A DNA stretch of 64,000 nucleotides from NCBI GenBank assembly GCA_951406725.2, contig OX597829.1:52390001-52454000 (forward strand). Reading direction: 5' to 3'. Positions within the stretch are counted from its first letter, which is position 1; each line of letters starts with the position of its first letter. Source of the stretch: Octopus vulgaris. Its lineage: Eukaryota. The position numbers and the translations under genes are program-made. The notes below the pieces were generated by a model. The model was not told the origin of the DNA and did not search any database. It saw only the letters and a program-made list of their open reading frames with translations. Below are positions 3,561-58,694 of the stretch, one piece after another.

Positions 3561-5542
3561 AATAAAATATCATATAATCAAGACAGGTAATTAATTGTAA
3601 TTAATTGTAAATCTGATAATTAGAGGTGAAATAGTCTGCCTGAATATGACTGACAGACTGTTTGTGGACTGATAGAATTTTGTAATAAAGGTTAAAGATC
3701 ATAACTCTGATAAAATAGCCATCTACATATCATATTTAATGTATGTACACTGTTGATAGGCCAGTTACAACAGGGTTTGTCCGGAGATAACATCTCTTAT
3801 GGACTTAGTGTGTGAAAAACATGATAACTAACACAGCATGGCTGATTAATGCAGCAAGTCAATAAAAGATGTCATCTCAGGAAAAATACCGCAGTTACTG
3901 GCTTATAGACAGCATACTGTGAGAAGCAGTATTTAATTTCATCAACTCGAAAAAGTATATTGTATGATTTTTCCATGTAATTCATAAAGGAAATCAGCAA
4001 TATTTCTATCCTTTATATCTTTTCACACTAAATTTTTCTGAAAAGAAGGCTTCTGTCAGTGAAAGTTGATTATGCATTTGCACATGTATGTGCTGATCTG
4101 GGTAAGAGTTTCTGACGAAGGTTAGCAGTTATCCATGCAAGCAAGTCTCCCTCCACATTTACCCAAGGAAAACGCCACAGACTTGGCACCAATTTTGTCA
4201 TAGACAGTGATGTCAGAACACAAATAATTGAAAACAGATATAGGAACAAGCATGGCTGTGTGGTAAGACGCTGGCTTTTAAACCATGTGATCTTGAGTTC
4301 AGTCTCCCTGTGTCATAGCTTGGAAAAGTGTCTTCTACAATAGTTCCAGGTCAACAAAGCCTTGTGGATATATATCGTAGACAGAAACTAAAAGAAGCCT
4401 ATTATATATATATATATAAAAGTTAAATAATGAGGGTAGAAATTAATATTAATTAATATGAAGTTAAACCAGTGGTCTAGCATACTTAAAAATCTAAAGA
4501 TTAAGAAATAATTTATATATATATATATATATATTTTTTCTCTCTCTTTATTTTCTCTCCCTGTTTCTTTCTGTGTTCCTTTCTGTGGAAGAGTGTAGGC
4601 TCGAAGCATTAAAGACTTTTCCACATTCCGCATGTTAAACTAATACATCTGTTTGTTGTCTACACCACCTGTCTTCGTCTTTTGTCTTTTTTGTGAATTC
4701 TCAATTGTGTATTTCAATAAGTAACAAATAATTCAGCATAAAATATTTGCAAAGATATCATTCCCTGTATTTATTATCTAGGGTAATATAAGTAAATTGA
4801 TAATAACAGAATTAATAATATAGGCGATTGTTGGCCTGAAAAAGCATTAAATAGCTAAAGGATTAAAATTTATAATAAATCAAAGGACATATTGAGCATG
4901 TCTAAGGCTTGAAAACAGTTGATTTCTGTAGTTATTATGAGTGTTATTTTTTTAGTGGTTTAAATAAGAATTTTGACTGTTATTTCCAGCAGGTAGACAT
5001 ACTCAGTATGTCCTTTGATTAATACATATTATATCATCAGCATCATCATCATTATCATTTAACATCTGTTGTTCTTGCTGGCATGGGTTGGACAGTTTGA
5101 CCAGGACTGGCCAGCTGGAAGGCTGCAGCAGACTCCAGTCTGATTTGACATAGTATTCTATGGCTGGATACCTTTCCTAACACCAACTACTCTGAGAGCG
5201 CAAAGGGTATTTTTATGTGCTACCAGCATGGGTGCCATTAGTATAACACCAGTACCGGCCATGACTGATTTTGCTCAGTTTGATGGGTCTTCTCAAGAAT
5301 GACATGATGCCAAAGGTCATGGTCATTGCCTTCATGTGGTGCAACACTTGAAAGAACTCAGCCACTTTGCCACTGTAAAGCTCAACGCTCGAATATTACG
5401 AATCGTCTTGGCCTAACGGCCCTTATTGTCTGTTTTGTTGATTGTTTACTTTGTGTGTCCACTCTGTTAATTTTGTTGTTGTTTGTTCATTTGAAGCCTT
5501 AACTCTCCACAAATTTTATATTTTTAAAATTTCTGGATGCTG

Positions 5543-5620
5543 CTGTCTTATGAAGTTTTCCTATCTTGTCGTTAAAAGCACGAAATAGGGAGTAGTAAAA
5601 CAGTCGACAACTGATGAGTG
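5543..5620 (+). ncRNA. Putative non-circularly permuted (pseudoknotted) hammerhead ribozyme, copy 1
   Basis: TTCCT-ATC (triplet 5563-5565), TTGTCG, linker, CAC-GAAA-TAGGGA ... CGACAA-CTGATGA-GTG. Stems III, I and II all pair. Confidence 0.7.
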
Positions 5621-5712
5621 AGTTATCTTCTTTTGGTGTTTTGTCCTGTACTTATCTGTCGTGTGTGTACGTACTTTTCACTTGTTGATGTCCAATAATT
5701 GTTGCGTATGCT

Positions 5713-6701
5713 TTGGTATTTTGTCCTGTACTTACCTCTTGTGTGTTTACGCATTTTCTCCTGTTAGTAATGTCCTGTACTAATTGCGTATAGTTTGGTA
5801 TTTTGTCCTGTACTTACCTCTTGTGTGTTTACGCATTTTCTCCAGTTAGTAATGTCCTGTACTAATTGCGTATAGTTTTGGTATTTTGTCCTGTACTTAC
5901 CTCTTGTGTGTTTACGCATTTTCTCCTGTTAGTAATGTCCTGTACTAATTGCGTATAGTTTGGTATTTTGTCCTGTACTTACCTCTTGTGTGTTTACGCA
6001 TTTTCTCCTGTTAGTAATGTCCTGTACTAATTGCGTATAGTTTGGTATTTTGTCCTGTACTTACCTCTTGTGTGTTTACGCATTTTCTCCTGTTAGTAAT
6101 GTCCTGTACTAATTGCGTATAGTTTGGTATTTTGTCCTGTACTTACCTCTTGTGTGTTTACGCATTTTCACCTGTTAGTAATGTCCTGTACTAATTGCGT
6201 ATAGTTTGGTATTTTGTCCTGTACTTACCTCTTGTGTGTTTACGCATTTTCTCCTGTTAGTAATGTCCTGTACTAATTGCGTATAGTTTGGTATTTTGTC
6301 CTGTACTTACCTCTTGTGTGTTTACGCATTTTCTCCTGTTAGTAATGTCCTGTACTAATTGCGTATAGTTTGGTATTTTGTCCTGTACTTACCTCTTGTG
6401 TGTTTACGCATTTTCACCTGTTAGTAATGTCCTGTACTAATTGCGTATAGTTTGGTATTTTGTCCTGTACTTACCTCTTGTGTGTTTACGCATTTTCTCC
6501 TGTTAGTAATGTCCTGTACTAATTGCGTATAGTTTGGTATTTTGTCCTGTACTTACCTCTTGTGTGTTTACGCATTTTCTCCTGTTAGTAATGTCCTGTA
6601 CTAATTGCGTATAGTTTGGTATTTTGTCCTGTACTTATCTCTCATGTGTTTGCATATTTTTCACCTGTTAGTGATGTCCTGTACTAATTGCTTATGGTTT
6701 G
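5713..6701. repeat. 82-bp tandem satellite, 12 copies (11 near-identical), continuing diverged at 10935-11150
   Basis: Unit TTGGTATTTTGTCCTGTACTTACCTCTTGTGTGTTTACGCATTTTCTCCTGTTAGTAATGTCCTGTACTAATTGCGTATAGT at 5713, 5795, 5878, 5960 etc. TGTCCTGTACT occurs twice per unit. Confidence 0.95.
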
Positions 6702-6797
6702 TGTTGTGTGGACGCCTGCAGATGATGACGTATGCTAGCCCAATACATAGATATGGAGGGAGAAGTAGTAGAGGCCATCCGAACGTGTGACATAACA
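6702..6797 (+). repeat. 5' LTR (96 bp)
   Basis: TGTTGTGTGG...CATAACA. Aligns to 10822-10934 with ~11 substitutions and one 17-bp indel. Confidence 0.9.
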
Positions 6798-6798
6798 G

Positions 6799-6865
6799 TG
6801 GTGACGAGGACTTTGTAGCTCACACAGCCACTGTGTAGTATTGCGATATAACAGTGGCGACGAGG
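6799..6865 (+). promoter_or_regulatory. Two primer-binding sites complementary to the tRNA-Ser(GCU) 3' end
   Basis: TGGTGACGAGGA at 6799 and TGGCGACGAGG at 6855, each preceded by TAACAG. tRNA-Ser(GCU) ends ...CCUCGUCGCCA. Confidence 0.75.
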
Positions 6866-6882
6866 TTTCGAATAGTACCAAA

Positions 6883-7700
6883 ATGGAAGAGTTACAGAAA
6901 GCAGTTGTAAAACAACAGGAGCAGCAGCTACAGAAGTTAACAGAGTTGTTACTGCAGCCGAGCAATACGACAGAATCATTTTCAGCAGATGGCGTTGCAA
7001 ATTCCATCGAAGATTTTCACTACAATCCGGATGAAGGAACTACTTTTGCTGCATATTAGGAAGACGATACGAAGACATATTCCGAGGGGAATGCAAGGGA
7101 TGGCCTAGTGAAAGGAAGGTAAAGCTCCTTTTGCGAATGCTTGCTACTCCGGAACACGAAAGTTTTTGTAACTTTATTTTGCCGAGAAAACCCGCGGAAT
7201 TGTGTTTTGATGAAATGATAAATATTTTGACTAATATTTTTAGCGAGAAAAGTCTGCAGTTTAACATTTGGTGAGAATGTTTAAATTTAAAGAAAAACGA
7301 GTCCGATGATTTTGTAACATATGCCGGTATGGTTAATAAGGCTTGCGAAAGGTTTAAGCAGGAAGAATTAATGCCAGATATGTTCAAGTGCCCAATATTC
7401 GTTAAAGGGCTAATGGCAACGGAAGACGCGGAAATTAGAAAAAGAATATTATCAAAGTTGAATCAAGATGTGAAACTCACTTTGCAGAAAATGGCTGAGG
7501 AATGCCAACAAATAATAAACCTTCGAGATGATACAAGAAAGATAGAAGACAAGAAAAATAATGTACAAATGTGTAAAGAAAGTACAGAAAGAAGGAAAAA
7601 TTTTAATTCAAAACGGTGCTATGGTTGCGGAGATCGGCATTTGAGGAAAGATTGCCCCTTTAAAGATAAAAGTGTGATAAAATTGGACATATACAGATAA
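6883..7700 (+). pseudogene. gag: gag of the gypsy element (stops and frameshifts)
   Basis: MEELQKAVVKQQEQQ...IEDFHYNPDEGTTFAAY, then a zinc knuckle CYGCGDRHLRKDC. Confidence 0.85.
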
Positions 7701-7799
7701 AATGCCGGTCAAAGAAAATGGTAAAATAGAAGGAAGTCTACTCAACAAAAGTAAATTATACCAGACAAAACCGAAAATTTGTATTGGTAGAAATAAATG

Positions 7800-10777
7800 G
7801 GTTTCAGACCAAAATGCAATTAGATACCAGTTCAGACGCATCGATAATAAATATGGCAACAGAGTAAGATAGGCAGGCCATTGTATAAAAAAAACCCTAC
7901 TAGAATAGCCTACGGTGTGTCAGGGGAACGAGTTCAATTCTTGGGCGAAATTTCACCAGAAATAAAACTTAAATACAGGACGCGGAAATGTAAACTAATG
8001 GTATCTAAGAATACAATGATTTAATGGAAGGATTTGACCTGTGGGATCTATCACTGAATACATTATGTAACAAGGTGAATGCGTTACAGTCCGTGTCAGA
8101 GAAAGCATCGGAAAAAATGAAATTAAAATTGAAAAAGATGTACCCTGATATTTTTTGGAAAGAGCTCGGTATGTGTAAAAAAATTAAAGTAAAGTTTGAG
8201 TTGAAAGAAGATGCGGTGCCGGTGTTCAAACCGAAAAGGAATGTACCTTTCACGACGTTAAATCAAGTTGAGAAGGAATTAAAAAGATTGGAAGACATGG
8301 AAGTAATTGAAAAAGTAGGTTACTCTGAGTGGGCAACTCCTACGATATATATGAAAAAAGAACAACGAGGTAAGAGTATGTGTGGACTTCTCAGCTGGTC
8401 TTAATGATTGTTTAAAAAATTTCAATTATCCGCTTCCAAACCCAGAAGAAATATTTGCTAAATGCAATGGTGGGAAAATTTTTCCAAGCTGAATTTGTCA
8501 GAGACCTACCTCCAATTACTGGTAGATGAAGAATGTGCTAAAGTATAAACAATCAATACTCATAAAGGTCTGTACCGTTTCAAAAGACTACCAGCTGGGG
8601 GTAAAGGGCGCACCAGCAATATTTCAGCAAGTAATGGATACTATGCTAGCAGATTGTGAGTTCGCGGTCCCATACTTGGATGACATATTGATCAAAAGTG
8701 AATCAAGGGATCAACATATCGAACATATAGAAGAGGTTTTCAAACGAATATGTGATTACGGGTTTAAAGTAAGGGAGGATAAATGTGAATTTTTCTTGAC
8801 AAAAATAAAGTACTTAGGACAGGTGATCGATGAAAACGGACGAAAACCGGAACCTTCTAGGATCGACGCCATAAAAAATATAAATGCCTGCTCCCACTAA
8901 CAAAACAAAACTATCAGCATTTTTAGGTTTGGTAAGTTATTACCAGTTGTACATACCTAAAATGTATGAGCTAAGAGTTCCGTTGAATAAGTTGCTAAAG
9001 AAGGACTCGAAATGGAGCTGGACAAACGAGTGCCAGAAATCATTCGAGGAATTAAAAAAGCGGTTAACATCAGAGTTATTAACTCATTTCGACCCAAATC
9101 TGAAAATAATTGTGGCATCGGATGCCAGTGAATATGGAATAGGAGCTGTGATATTGCATAAATTTAATGATGGTAAAATCAAAGCTATTGCACATGCATC
9201 GAGAGTTCTATTACCAGCAGAAAGAAACTACAGCCAGATTGAAAAAGAGGCGTTATCATTATTCTTCGCAGTAAAAAAATTCCATAAATTCTTACATGGG
9301 AGGAAGTTTACACTGCAAACGGATCACCGAATGTTATTGTCTATTTTTGATTCGAAAAAGGGTATCCCAACGCACTCAGCAAACTGCTTACAGCGCTGGG
9401 GGACTACCCTGTTGAACTACGATTCCCAGATGGAGTTTTTGCCATCAATGAAAATGGGACACGCAGACGGGTTGTCTAGGCTAATTCCAAAATATAAGAA
9501 ACCTTTTGAAGACACGGTGATTGCATCGTTAAAACTAGAAATGGAACTGAAGAACATTTTGTGCAATGTAGTACGTGATTTGCCGGTAACGCTGGAAGAA
9601 ATTAAATTGAAATCGGGAAACGATAGGTTCATAAACAAGATTTTAAAAATGTTGAGTAACACGAAAAATATAAATGAGCAGAACGCAGGTTCAAAGCACT
9701 ACTCAGTATGTGATGAGGTGTTATTATATGCACAAAGAGTGGTGATACCTGAAGCACTACAAAACAGAGTATTAAAGGACTTTCATGTAGGACATGCGGG
9801 GATTGTCCGGATGAAGAGCTTCATGAGGAGTTATGTTTATTGGCCGAATATGGACTAAATTGAGAGACTAAATTGACGCCCACAGTGCAGATTCAGCCGT
9901 GGCCAAAAACGGATTCGGCATGGTCTAGACTACATGTGGATTTCGCAGGACCATTAAATGGCTCTCATTATAACATTGTGGTGGATAGCTATTCCGAATG
10001 GCCTGAAGTGTGTAAATGTTTAAGAACAACCACAAGTGTGACTATTGACTTCTTGGAAGAACTGTTCGCTCGTTATGGAGTGCAAGATACGATCGTGTCG
10101 GATAATGGTACACAATTCACGGCGAAGGAGTTCGAAAGATTCTGTAAGTCGGTTCAGATGAATCATGTGTTAACTCCGCCATACCATCCAAGGTCAAATG
10201 GGTTAGCGGAAAGATTGGTCGACACATTCAAGAGAGCTTTAAGGAAGACCAGACGGGAAACCCTTGAAGATACAAATATGACAAAGTTTTTGCAGGTGTA
10301 TAGAATAACACCGAACCCAAATGCAGAGTCGGGTAGGTTACCCGCAGATTTGATGTTTTCCAGAAAACTTCGCTCTATTTTTGACAAATGGTTGCCGAGC
10401 AGGAAACAAAAAATACGGGAAGAAAAACGAAATTTTTTGACATAGGTGACAAAGTGTATTTTAAAATATATAGTAACGGAAAACAGGACTGGGAACAAGG
10501 AAGTATAACTGGACGTCTGGGTAATGTGATGTACACGGTAAAAGGACCAAAATATGAGCACAGAAGGCATTTAAACCAATTAAAAAAAAAAGATATACCA
10601 AAAAGCAAGAGAGGCGAGAAGACCCAATGGATATATGGTATGATTTGTTCGAGGTCCCAGAACCACAAGCAAATGCAGAACCGATACGTAGGTCGAACAG
10701 GAAGAGCAAAACCTGCAGAAATGATGGAAATTAACGCTAAGAGAAAAAGATATGCCAGTTTCTCACCGAGGAAATAA
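7800..10777 (+). pseudogene. pol: pol of the gypsy element (protease, RT, RNase H, integrase), frameshifted
   Basis: LDTSSD protease-like motif (~7819); RT GVKGAPAIFQ and PYLDDILI; RNase H ASDASEYGIG and RNYSQIEKEAL; integrase HVGHAG, HVDFAGP, VSDNGTQF, HPRSNGLAER. Confidence 0.95.
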
Positions 10778-10821
10778 AATTGATAAATTCGGGTTTAAAA
10801 AAAAAACTCAAAAGGGGGAGG

Positions 10822-10934
10822 TGTTGTGTGGACGACCCCAGACGATGAAGTAGACTAGCCCAATACGTAGATATAGAGGGAGAAGTCTAGACGTCAGGAG
10901 TTGAGTAGAGGTCATCCGAACGTGCGACATAACA
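10822..10934 (+). repeat. 3' LTR (113 bp)
   Basis: Follows the PPT. TGTTGTGTGG...CATAACA, then TSD GTTTG. Confidence 0.9.
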
Positions 10935-11246
10935 GTTTGGTATTTTGTCCTGTACTTATCTGTCGTGTGTTCATGTATTTTTCACCTGTTAGTGATGTCC
11001 TGTACTAATTGCGTATGGTTTGGTATTTTGTCCTGTACTTATCTCTCATGTGTTTGCATTATTTCACCTGTTAATGATTTCCTGTACTAATTGCGTATGG
11101 TTTCGTATTTTCTCCTGTACTTATCTCTCGTGTGTTTACGTATTTTTTGTATTTACTTTGTATGTCCACGCTGTTTTTGTTGTTATTTGTTCATTTGAAG
11201 ACCTAACTCTCCACAAATTTTATACTTTTAAAATTTCTGGATGCTG

Positions 11247-11324
11247 CTGTCTTATGAAGTTTTCCTATCTTGTCGTTAAAAGCACGAAATAGGGAGTAGT
11301 AAAACAGTCGACAACTGATGAGTG
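11247..11324 (+). ncRNA. Putative non-circularly permuted hammerhead ribozyme, copy 2 (identical to copy 1)
   Basis: ATC 11267-11269, GAAA 11286-11289, CTGATGA 11315-11321, same stems as 5543-5620. Confidence 0.7.
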
Positions 11325-19261: not shown

Positions 19262-20314
19262 AGAAGATTGTTTCCTAAACTACATGATTCTGGGTTCAAT
19301 CTCAAATATGTGACATCTTGGACAAATGCCTTTTACTGTCGCCCCAGACCTTGTGAGTGAATTTGGTAGACAAAAACTGGAAGAAACCTGCCATATATAA
19401 ATTATTGATTTCAATTTCTTTTTTTTTTTACTACTTTTTATAGAAAACCCCTCCCAATTGCTTGTCTAGGTTTCTTTCTCAAATGACACAGCAAATTTCC
19501 TGATATCATTTATCTTTCTCTCGATTGTTTCAGTCATAGGACTGTAGCCCTGTCGCAGCGTTGCCCTTGAAGGGTTTTAGTCGAATGAATTGATCCCAGT
19601 ATTTATTTGTTTTCAATCCTGGTACTTATTTTATCAGTTTCTTTGGCCGAACCAGTAAGTTATGGACACGTAAACAAACCAAACGCTCGGTTGTCACGCG
19701 GTAGTGAGAGACAAACACAAAGACACACACACGCTCTCTCTCTCTCACTCACTCACACACACGTGCACACATTCATACATGTGACGAACTTCCACACAGT
19801 TTCCGTCACAAGGCTTTGGCATTAGCCCAATATATATAGGTTTAGCATTAGCCCAATATGCTACATAGTGAGAATGAACCCAGGACCATGTGGTTGGGAA
19901 GCAAGCTTTATATCACACAACTACGCCTGCGCCTATTTATATATATAAGCATATACAGTGTATGTGGAGGCGCGTGACTTAGTGTCAGTATCATGATCGT
20001 AAGATTGTGGTTTCGATTCCTGGACCGGGCGACGCGTTGTGTTCTTGAGCAAAAGTCACACACCAGCATCGGTTGTCAAGCGATGGTGGGGGGGGGGGGA
20101 CAAGCACAGACTCACAAACGACGGCCTTCTTTCAGTTTCCGTCTATCAAATCCATTCACAAGGGTTCGATCATCTCGGGGTTATAGTAGAAGACACTTTC
20201 CCAAGGTGTCATGCAGTGGGAATGAACCAGGAACGATGTGGTTGGTAAGCAAGCTTCTTACCACACAGCCACTCCTGCGCCTATATATATATATTTATAT
20301 ATATATATATATAA

Positions 20315-20928
20315 TTACGATGCGCACTCTTCTATCTTTACTATCTCTTCTCTGTCTATCTCTCTTCCCCTCTTGTTCTTCATACTTTCTGGTTTTCTCT
20401 CCCACCCTTCCCTATTCTTCTCCTCTCCTCTTCACCGTTTCCCCTCTCTCACTCCTCCTCCTCGACTCTCTCGTCGCTGACACGTGACGAAAGAGAATCT
20501 ACCTTTCTACCCACAAGCTTCGTAAAGACTATACGTGCTTATACTGTCTCTTTCGCAAGCTTGTCTTCCTAAGCGTTCAATAATGATTTTTCTATTGTCT
20601 TGACTTAACAACCATCACCGTTTGTTTTTACTGCTTTGTTCTCATTGTCCTGTTCTTGTTACCACTTTCACCCCCCGCTAAAAATCCCAAATTTGATTTA
20701 ATTTGCTTTGCGGGAAGGATTGTTTCAATGAAGTCGCGTCTTGTCTTTGCCTTTGAAACGTGGAGTAGATGAAACAGGGACAACTGAAGAAGGGGAATAT
20801 TCTTTATGTTGTATGTCTCGTTTCTCTATTTGTTTTTTTCGTTGTTCGAAAAAAAGTTCGTTTCTATGTTTTTGTTTTTATGTTTTCGTTTCTCATTGTG
20901 TTCAACGTATTTTTGATGTCCTGTACTC
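20315..20928 (+). mobile_element. Divergent relative of the 5.4/11.2-kb repeat, inserted in (TA)n
   Basis: Pyrimidine-rich body, the same permuted HHR layout, and a shared TTGATGTC(C/T)TGTAC 3' end. Confidence 0.6.
20721..20795 (+). ncRNA. Putative non-circularly permuted hammerhead ribozyme, divergent copy 3
   Basis: TCGC-GTC (20738-20740), TTGTCTT, CCTTT-GAAA-CGTGG ... GGGACAA-CTGAAGA-AGGGG. Stems covary with copies 1 and 2. Confidence 0.65.
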
Positions 20929-20944
20929 ATATATGCATGTATAT

Positions 20945-20997
<53 letters not shown>

Positions 20998-21007
<10 letters not shown>

Positions 21008-21338
21008 CATATATATGTATGTATGTATGCATATATATGTATGTATGTATGCATATATATGTATGTATGTATGCATATATATGTATGTATGTATGCATAT
21101 ATATGTATGTATGTATGCATATATATGTATGTATGTATGCATATATATGTATGTATGTATGCATATATATGTATGTATGAATGCATATATATGTATGTAT
21201 GAATGCACATATATGTATGTATGTATGCACATATATGTATGTATGCACATATATGTATGTATGTATGCATATATATGTATGTATGCATGCATATATATGT
21301 ATGTATGTATGCACATATATGTATGTATGTATGCATAT
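20998..21338. repeat. 22-bp higher-order microsatellite
   Basis: (ATGCATATATATGTATGTATGT)n, ~15 copies. Source of the MHIYVC-type ORFs. Confidence 0.9.
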
Positions 21339-21426
21339 ATTTATATATTATTTATATTATTATATGATCGGACGCCACGCATCCTTTTCCAAGTAAGTTT
21401 TATCTATGTATGTATGTATGTGTGTG

Positions 21427-23581: not shown

Positions 23582-24242
23582 AGAGAAGAACCGCCATGAA
23601 GCAATTCAACAATGATATACTTAAATCATGCCATATAGAAAAAAATTAAAGATACGATAAAATATTTACCTAGAACTAAATAAAGTACTAAATAATAAAT
23701 AAATAGTATATGATTAGTAAATAGACTACACGTGTTTCGTGGCTATATTTTCAAATTGATAACAATAAAATCAATTCAATTTAAATATAGTCACTCATCA
23801 GGTCTAAGATAAAAACAATAACATAATTAAATAAATGTACATATATAATTTTATAAGAAAAGATAAATATATATAAAAATACGTAATTTTACAATAAAAA
23901 ATCGAACAAAATTCAACAATATATCTTAAAATAAAAGCATGACTTATCTTATTGAATATATTCTGTTAAGTAAAACTTTTAAACTAAATGCATAGGACTT
24001 AGTGTTTATAATAAAATTATCTCATTAAAAAAGATAGAATAGATAGATAGATAGAAATATTTATTTTATCTATGAAAATATATTTTAGCTTATAGAAGAA
24101 AATAACAAACTATAGAATATCATTAATGGAAAATTAAAGTACAAGTAATTAAAACAAAATATTTAAAACAAATATTTTTTCTATATGGTATGATTTAAGT
24201 ATATCATAGTTGAATTGCTTCTTGGTGGTTCTTCTCTAATTT
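23577..24242 (-). mobile_element. Penelope-like non-autonomous element with ~67-bp inverted ends, flanked by microsatellite
   Basis: 23577-23645 is the reverse complement of 24176-24242. It contains the HHR at 23722-23806. Confidence 0.65.
23722..23806 (-). ncRNA. Type I hammerhead ribozyme with long stem II and palindromic stem III
   Basis: Minus strand: TAGAC-CTGATGA-GTGACTATATTT...AAATATAGCCAC-GAAA-CACGTG-TA-GTCTA. Intact core, GUA site. Confidence 0.9.
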
Positions 24243-58160: not shown

Positions 58161-58694
58161 ATGCCTAGGGTTAAACTCAACTCCCCTTGTCAGCTTATGA
58201 GATTTCCATTGAAATCATACACTGATTTCATAAATGGTAAACGAATAAAATTATAAACAATATGGGTGGCTAATTCGCAATTTTACAACCTAAAGGCAGG
58301 AATATATACATTCCTAAAGTAAAAAAGGGCACTACTCAGCACCTGTATTGCTAGAAATAAGAGTCAAAACAACTGAACAACCACAGAAACACTATCTTAA
58401 TGACTGACAAGAGAGGAAGCTCCCTACAGTCGCAGATGTAGCCAGATCATTGATGATTTCGCATTTTGATGCTTAACACATCTTAATGCTCATCAGTGGC
58501 TCTCACCATGCCTAGGGTTAAACCCAGCTTGCCTTATCAGCTTATATGATTTCTGTTGAAATCATACACTGGATTTCATAAACAGTAAAAGTGAAAATTA
58601 TACATAATATGGGCGACTAATTCACAGTTTTACAACCTAGTGATGTACATATTTCTGACTTTAGGTTATAAAATTGCAAATTAGCCAGCTATAA
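58161..58694 (-). mobile_element. Retrozyme/Penelope-like element: 347-bp monomer present as a ~1.4-mer plus an inverted fragment
   Basis: Direct repeat 58161-58292 / 58508-58639. 58643-58694 is inverted relative to 58260-58311. One HHR per monomer. Confidence 0.7.
58440..58501 (-). ncRNA. Type I hammerhead ribozyme
   Basis: Minus strand: AGCCA-CTGATGA-GCATTAAGATG..CATCAAAATGC-GAAA-TCATCAATGA-TC-TGGCT. Intact core, AUC site. Confidence 0.9.

Follow-up and report, generated by a model that had tools for sequence, protein, structure and literature searches.

A candidate rearranged hammerhead, probably closed by an upstream stem II strand, in an ORF-less Penelope-like repeat of Octopus vulgaris

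Results

The 64,000-nucleotide stretch of Octopus vulgaris DNA analysed here (the window) holds on its plus strand, at 20311-21404, one unit of an ORF-less Penelope-like repeat (family 2), whose limits were set by homology to 30 genomic copies and which is bordered by (TA)n on the 5' side and by a microsatellite on the 3' side. It consists, in this order, of a CT-rich part, the putative ribozyme motif, a T-rich tail, a microsatellite expansion and a short extension, the last of which equals the 5' start of the unit in other copies (start motif at 21366). Six-frame translation of three family-2 copies gave no coding frame. Family-2 units are about 0.7-0.8 kb long, are truncated to varying extents at the 5' end, form partial tandems, carry a short terminal extension and are flanked by (TA)n. 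Families 1 and 6 share this build, and because no ORF was present in the family-1, -2 and -6 copies translated, these families are filed as non-autonomous. Overall the units measure about 0.7-0.9 kb and are mostly dispersed and truncated; tandem units occur at loci L024, L030, L078 and L079. Truncation at the 5' end, partial tandems and a short terminal extension are given as hallmarks of Penelope-like elements by Craig et al. 2021 (PMC8557442), and all three are found here together with microsatellite targets. A first look gave 3,561, 868 and 2,266 candidates for families 2, 1 and 6, respectively, which are not copy numbers, and single words of family 2 had 389 and 979 exact matches in the host genome, while one of family 6 had 675. 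Assembled contigs of four public runs, not recorded as RNA, cover the element, and a degenerate family-1/2 pattern had no match in metagenome contigs.

Several smaller features accompany these units. An 8-base word, CACGTGAC, which follows the CT-rich tract (window 20481-20488), is common to families 1, 2 and 6 despite their otherwise different sequence and is possibly a promoter element. Near the unit start of families 1 and 2 there is a splice-donor-like word (window 21393-21398) followed by a pyrimidine-rich tract, an arrangement reminiscent of the Penelope 5' intron described by Craig et al. 2021 (PMC8557442). Two family-1 motif copies are also present on the plus strand of the window, at 5536-5617 (upstream stem II strand included) and at 11240-11321. 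Just downstream of a family-1 motif an array of about 12 units of 82 bp (5630-6700) extends the family-1 tail, and an LTR retrotransposon at 6702-10934, whose frames are broken and which has RNase H and integrase domains, lies within tail repeats between the two motif copies.

In the family-2 unit the blocks of a hammerhead follow one another at 20734-20790 of the plus strand in the order cleavage site, GAAA, CUGANGA (20734-20795 if the stem II partner proposed in an earlier, sequence-only reading of this DNA is included), which bears out the permuted A-C-B layout claimed there. A hammerhead block scan allowing any order found this arrangement three times in the window, at 5552, 11256 and 20727, that is, in the copy under study and in the two family-1 copies. 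Shuffled controls, on which the earlier reading was to stand or fall, were in its favour: a descriptor that leaves out stem II had 3 matches in the real 64 kb and 1 in total in 100 dinucleotide-shuffled windows. Neither an Rfam scan nor nested folding handles crossing helices; with the former, no match to the hammerhead families (types I-III) reached gathering score in the window, and with the latter a single copy was not significant (z +0.91). The block scan also returned two candidates for hammerheads of ordinary order (type I-like) on the minus strand, at 58427-58508 and 23709-23813.

The core words and the U-H site are present as CUGANGA at 20784-20790, GAAA at 20755-20758 and the cleavage site at 20739-20740, and are kept across eight families. 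Read along the plus strand, the proposed fold starts with the 5' strand of stem II (G10.1 onward) at 20714-20718, upstream of the cut site, and with the 5' strand of an extra helix, P0, at 20720-20727, which links stems I and II. The 3' strand of stem III with its GUC triplet follows at 20734-20740, with the predicted cut after C20740, then the 3' strand of stem I (20741-20746), a linker of 3 nt between stems I and II (20747-20749), as in the type SGC hammerhead of Eckert 2023 (PMC10085705), and the 3' strand of stem II (20750-20754). The GAAA core (G12-A15.1) and the 5' strand of stem III occupy 20755-20763, the 3' strand of P0 20770-20777, and the 5' strand of stem I with the CUGAAGA core (C3-A9) 20778-20790, after which, past A9, the chain exits the core. 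P0 had no place in the earlier description; it has 8 bp in this copy (20720-20727 with 20770-20777) and 8-10 bp in family copies, and in the minimum-energy fold of a single copy it makes up a hairpin together with stem III.

This copy shows signs of decay, as had been suspected, since four C-to-T changes turn Watson-Crick pairs into G-U pairs while the core is intact. The sequence-only reading had asked whether its G-U pairs resolve in a family consensus. In the majority of 33 segments from 30 loci, chosen by their upstream sequence, those at 20746 (stem I) and 20761 (stem III) do become C-G. The two G-U pairs of its stem II never resolve. Read-through copies still have T more often than not at 20761 (30/48), as expected from CpG decay. 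C is listed as a variant at 20720, 20746, 20754 and 20761 in the four public runs.

It is in stem II that the fold has to be corrected. The earlier reading had paired CCTTT with AGGGG, that is, with 20791-20795 directly after the core, but position 20754 (11.1), T in this copy, is C in the family majority and in 41 of 48 read-through copies, and would there face A20791. That register was rejected as the main one on account of this A·C at its base, its weaker duplex and the small number of descriptor matches that pair well in it. The upstream strand GAAGG at 20714-20718 makes five Watson-Crick pairs with the family-majority strand, and the duplex energies are -7.2 kcal/mol for the upstream register and -3.7 kcal/mol for the downstream one. 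The fetched loci, 1.18 Mb in all, contained 72 distinct descriptor matches, of which 51 had a best upstream partner with at least 4 Watson-Crick pairs and 3 had such a partner at offset 0-1 after A9. Since this first version searched upstream over a range of positions, which favours the upstream side, the comparison was repeated with any downstream offset allowed; upstream was then better in 74 of 98 matches and downstream in 13. Families 2, 6 and N each have a constant upstream offset. The base that follows A9 is unconserved across families (A, G or T), while position 11.1 is mostly C. Downstream candidates for stem II do exist, with 6 bp at offset 15 in family 5 and 4 bp at offset 5 in families 6 and 7. 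In family 1 upstream pairing needs a bulged A when 11.1 is C (C in 17/30, T in 10/30). With stem II so corrected, the topology shifts from a plain type SGC hammerhead to a form broken between A9 and G10.1.

Complementarity of all three stems is specific to families. When strands were swapped among eight families, represented by one chosen copy each, picked as well-paired and with families 2/3 and 6/7 being related and thus not independent, the own-family arrangement gave 41 Watson-Crick pairs against 21.6 for stem II, 44 against 23.0 for stem I and 30 against 12.1 for stem III, with 4, 4 and 1 of 40,320 permutations as high, respectively. For the five less related families the corresponding numbers were 1, 2 and 1 of 120 permutations for stems II, I and III. 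The family-1 copy in this test has T at 11.1. Pairs were counted on block-anchored strands, because the cleavage block of families 4 and N was put in the wrong place when 12 copies were aligned automatically. Stem I, stem II and stem III thus lie at the positions which a hammerhead core prescribes, and they covary, stem II only with its upstream strand. The second, covarying version of the permuted hammerhead announced by the sequence-only reading is therefore real as regards stems I and III, and the differences between families in stem I, stem III, the triplet and position 7 are those it had described. Locus L512 combines a family-2 P0 with a family-3-like stem I bearing compensatory changes.

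The 5' ends of genomic copies change in frequency at the predicted cut. For family 2, a 29-mer lying wholly downstream of it has 389 exact matches, and ends were mapped in the first 100: 47 of the 100 copies begin 0 to +35 after the cut, 4 of them exactly at it, and 10 begin within 75 bases upstream. The truncation rate passes from 0.0146 to 0.0028 per nt, with the best change point at 0 (range -60 to +35, likelihood ratio 29.8). For family 6 (first 70 of 675 exact matches) 32/70 copies begin at +4 to +34, with rates of 0.0142 and 0.0019 and a best change point of -5; of the three ends at -3 to -5, two share letters with a microsatellite. In family 1, 10 of 28 copies begin at +7 to +17. A set of 30 copies selected by the far tail gave a weak peak, with 5 ends in 0 to +38 and none at 0, and rates of 0.0063 at the peak, 0.0030 downstream and 0.0016 upstream. 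Most ends lie several bases past the cut, which could be explained by trimming or by microhomology to (TA)n, and stalling of the reverse transcriptase could contribute. The pile-up of 5' ends at or just after the predicted site points to a motif that likely self-cleaves. At L490 an internal deletion rejoins at or next to the predicted family-6 cut site.

Read-through copies of family 2 often carry a damaged core. The core GAAA is intact in 17 of 48 read-through copies and in 19 of 24 truncated ones (Fisher p 0.0009), a count without the 5 read-through copies whose ends are no more than 30 bases from the cut and without 23 copies truncated past +11. It is also intact in only 10/29 copies of an upstream-selected set and in 3/15 of a tail-selected one (by eye), sets which partly overlap. 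Of the same 48 read-through copies, 40 retain an intact GAAA that lies outside the core, in P0. Such damage fits copies made from transcripts that escaped cleavage. In family 6 no enrichment of core damage was seen, GAAA being intact in 31/35 read-through and 17/17 truncated copies (p 0.29). The family-2 damage is concentrated on A13, CUGANGA being intact in 23 of 29 unbiased copies, and 16 of 48 read-through copies have A in place of C at position 17.

Naiads, a clade of Penelope-like elements, are described by Craig et al. 2021 (PMC8557442) as being without canonical hammerheads, some of them with "core" or "half core" words 35-50 nt apart. A motif from the 3' end of Naiad_Ovul and Naiad_Obim had 318 exact matches in the host genome and its control 0; the Naiad_Ovul-type motif (family N) shows the split wiring there, and at L357, L359, L378 and L382 it lies 1.1-1.5 kb downstream of a reverse transcriptase-like remnant on the same strand. 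Such a remnant precedes the motif only in family N. In the supplement of Craig et al. 2021, viewed by eye at 58/62 places for CTGATGA, 30/43 for CTGAAGA, 15/23 for CTGACGA and 15/25 for CTGAGGA, with line breaks that can hide words, the split wiring can be made out, with other stem sequences, in three Acropora Naiads that are nearly identical, in both Naiad_Obim and Naiad_Ovul and in four further entries, and with an imperfect stem II in one more. Six entries of that supplement, including three Nippostrongylus Naiads, appear by eye to be intact type CSG hammerheads with the same linker and P0; the other places in it are mostly coding sequence, and several 3' ends are ambiguous by eye. At the 3' end of one Naiad in the same source the stretch from the stem I strand to GAAA may fold into a hairpin as stem II, and this would be another wiring. 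It is likely that the ribozyme which many Naiad elements were reported to lack is the split motif.

An ORF-bearing partner for families 1, 2 and 6 was found neither in the best 30 of 148 GIY-YIG loci nor among 19 weaker reverse transcriptase matches with 2.5 kb downstream. Most of the former have a C-terminal endonuclease and ordinary hammerheads, and their sole family-1/2 matches, at L294, L296 and L309, were rejected as partners, being merely neighbouring insertions; the latter gave one further motif (L386) with no tie to families 1, 2 and 6. Two short fragments of the reverse transcriptase end were not recognized by Pfam. The ORF that defines the Naiad clade, with an N-terminal GIY-YIG domain and a C-terminal reverse transcriptase, was absent from the family-1, -2 and -6 copies translated. 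Naiads are nevertheless the likely mobilising partner of these families, to judge from the shared wiring and target.

Discussion

The reading which we favour, with a probability of roughly 70%, is that the locus carries a decayed rearranged hammerhead in a high-copy ORF-less Penelope-like repeat, with a stem II closed from upstream, that the motif likely self-cleaves after C20740 and that the repeat is likely moved by Naiad-type enzymes. At the level of sequence this is supported by the blocks, the family-specific complementarity, the copy numbers and the step in 5' ends. The RNA would run from the 5' strand of stem II through P0, the stem III strand with the cut site, the stem I strand, the 3-nt linker and the 3' strand of stem II to GAAA, and from there through the other strands of stem III, P0 and stem I to CUGANGA. 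P0 and stem III would fold into a long hairpin, the loop of which would pair with the upstream strand on one side (stem II) and with the downstream strand on the other (stem I), and the core would assemble with A9 in one part of the chain and G10.1 in another. The transcript would then presumably be cut after C20740 by the usual chemistry of G12 and G8, whose catalytic roles we take from Zhan et al. 2024 (PMC11300833), who describe a pseudoknot hammerhead of other connectivity. The trimmed 3' product would serve as the template from which a Penelope-type reverse transcriptase makes new copies in (TA)n.

Eckert 2023 (PMC10085705) counts six possible block orders of the hammerhead, on the assumption that its three blocks are uninterrupted, and reports type SGC from metatranscriptomes and type CSG from metagenomes, neither of them in genomes of known organisms. 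These two types (Eckert, Friedrich, Weinberg and Weinberg 2023, PMC10085705) resemble the octopus motif in their cyclic block order, short linker between stems I and II, linking helix and core bases. They differ from it in that CUGANGA and the stem II strand are contiguous in them, while here this strand lies upstream of the cut site, and in being environmental only, whereas here there are thousands of candidate copies in an animal genome. The block order, the short linker and the helix linking stems I and II are thus those of type SGC, but a stem II strand directly 3' of CUGANGA, which would keep block C unbroken, is mismatched in the family-2 majority. If A9 is joined to G10.1 on paper the circle of SGC and CSG results, so that the split form is a further opening of that circle. 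The pseudoknot, or pistol-like, hammerhead (Zhan et al. 2024, PMC11300833) likewise has a hammerhead core, with a pseudoknot in place of helix II, but its A9 and G10.1 are in one short stem and its pseudoknot comes from a separate stem-loop, and the connectivity here is different. Here A9 is not followed by a conserved G, as A9 and a G10.1-C11.1 pair in one short stem would need. We found neither a hammerhead broken between A9 and G10.1 nor a permuted hammerhead in Naiads in the literature searched, which was largely open-access and had the supplements of Eckert 2023 and of the 2026 preprint cited below outside its scope; the relevant passages of Cervera and de la Pena 2020 (PMC7229834) and of a 2025 review name no such form. 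For the catalytic competence of a molecule with the A9-G10.1 break there is, in this literature, no precedent.

The motif might instead be a plain type SGC hammerhead with its stem II strand right after CUGANGA, perhaps past a short insertion, the upstream match being an alternative or inhibitory pairing. Type SGC has been validated in vitro (PMC10085705), the window copy can make 5 pairs in the downstream register, one extra base after A9 lets 3/34 family-2 matches reach 4 Watson-Crick pairs, and families 5, 6 and 7 have the downstream candidates mentioned. We nevertheless regard this as unlikely, since the family-2 majority has A·C at the first pair of that register, A, G or T follows A9 while 11.1 is mostly C, and the upstream partner is perfect and its offset fixed. 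Moreover, families 3 and N have no downstream partner except weak stems rich in G-U, and Acropora Naiads, in the supplement viewed by eye, have none right after the core. A split fold could also be conserved without cleaving, as a signal for recognition by the reverse transcriptase or for packaging, with 5' ends piling up where the enzyme stalls. Most ends do lie at +4 to +35 and not at 0, family-6 read-through copies keep intact cores and the tail-selected peak is weak. But C3-A9, G12-A15.1 and the U-H site are constant in 8/8 families while the stems vary, and truncation remains frequent from +8 to 0, by which point the partner strands have been copied, and drops at 0; as the damage in family 2 is also specific to the catalytic GAAA, we consider a fold of this kind improbable.

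Assembly of the core only between two tandem copies or two RNAs, in ordinary circular order and in the manner of dimer-cleaving minimal Penelope hammerheads, seems very unlikely to us. Tandem units exist (L024, L030; L078, L079), and Penelope hammerheads reportedly cleave as dimers, as the title of a paper has it. However, all stems are local and of 5-8 bp, and the hairpin of P0 and stem III is the minimum-energy one of a single copy. Monomeric SGC and CSG RNAs, besides, do cleave (PMC10085705). Chance complementarity within a repeat, with which the unremarkable folding z-score and the missing Rfam match would agree, has a negligible probability in view of the 3 real descriptor matches against 1 in 100 shuffled windows and of the permutation tests; for stems I and III these two controls rule it out.

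On balance it appears probable to us, from comparison of sequences, that we are dealing with a natural active hammerhead outside the six block orders, with its break between A9 and G10.1, which occurs thousands of times in an animal genome and also in Naiads of several phyla, and that together with intact type CSG it makes up the hammerhead missing from many Naiads, as two openings of one circle. If so, a connectivity which the enumeration of 2023 excluded by assumption would be added to the hammerhead, non-circularly permuted hammerheads would move from anonymous environmental RNAs to an animal genome with a biological context, and it would be explained why standard searches find only "half cores" in Naiads. 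The role of ribozymes in the retrotransposition of Penelope-like elements was called unclear by Craig et al. 2021 (PMC8557442). With the step in 5' ends at the predicted cut we have a rare piece of indirect evidence for a Penelope-type ribozyme that shapes the template of retrotransposition, and the natural copies are ready test substrates.

The repeats have relatives on two sides. With the Naiad clade (Craig et al. 2021, PMC8557442) they share (TA)n targets, 5' truncation, partial tandems, the short terminal extension and the 3' wiring of Naiad_Ovul and Naiad_Obim, but Naiads have ORFs and the units here are without one. Non-LTR retrozymes (Cervera and de la Pena 2020, PMC7229834; Li, Clavereau and Pollet 2026, 10.64898/2026.07.22.740005) are similar in being short non-coding hammerhead repeats, proposed to be non-autonomous Penelope-like derivatives; they differ in having type I hammerheads, units of 170-400 nt and circular RNAs that have been shown, whereas the units here measure about 0.7-0.9 kb and are known from DNA alone. 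Type I hammerheads were also encountered in the host genome: L299, L304, L322 and related loci belong to a young Penelope-like family with a C-terminal endonuclease and open frames of 781 aa, and several of these copies carry, 3' of the ORF, a minimal type I hammerhead in which, by eye, core U3 and A8 form a compensated version of the C3-G8 pair.
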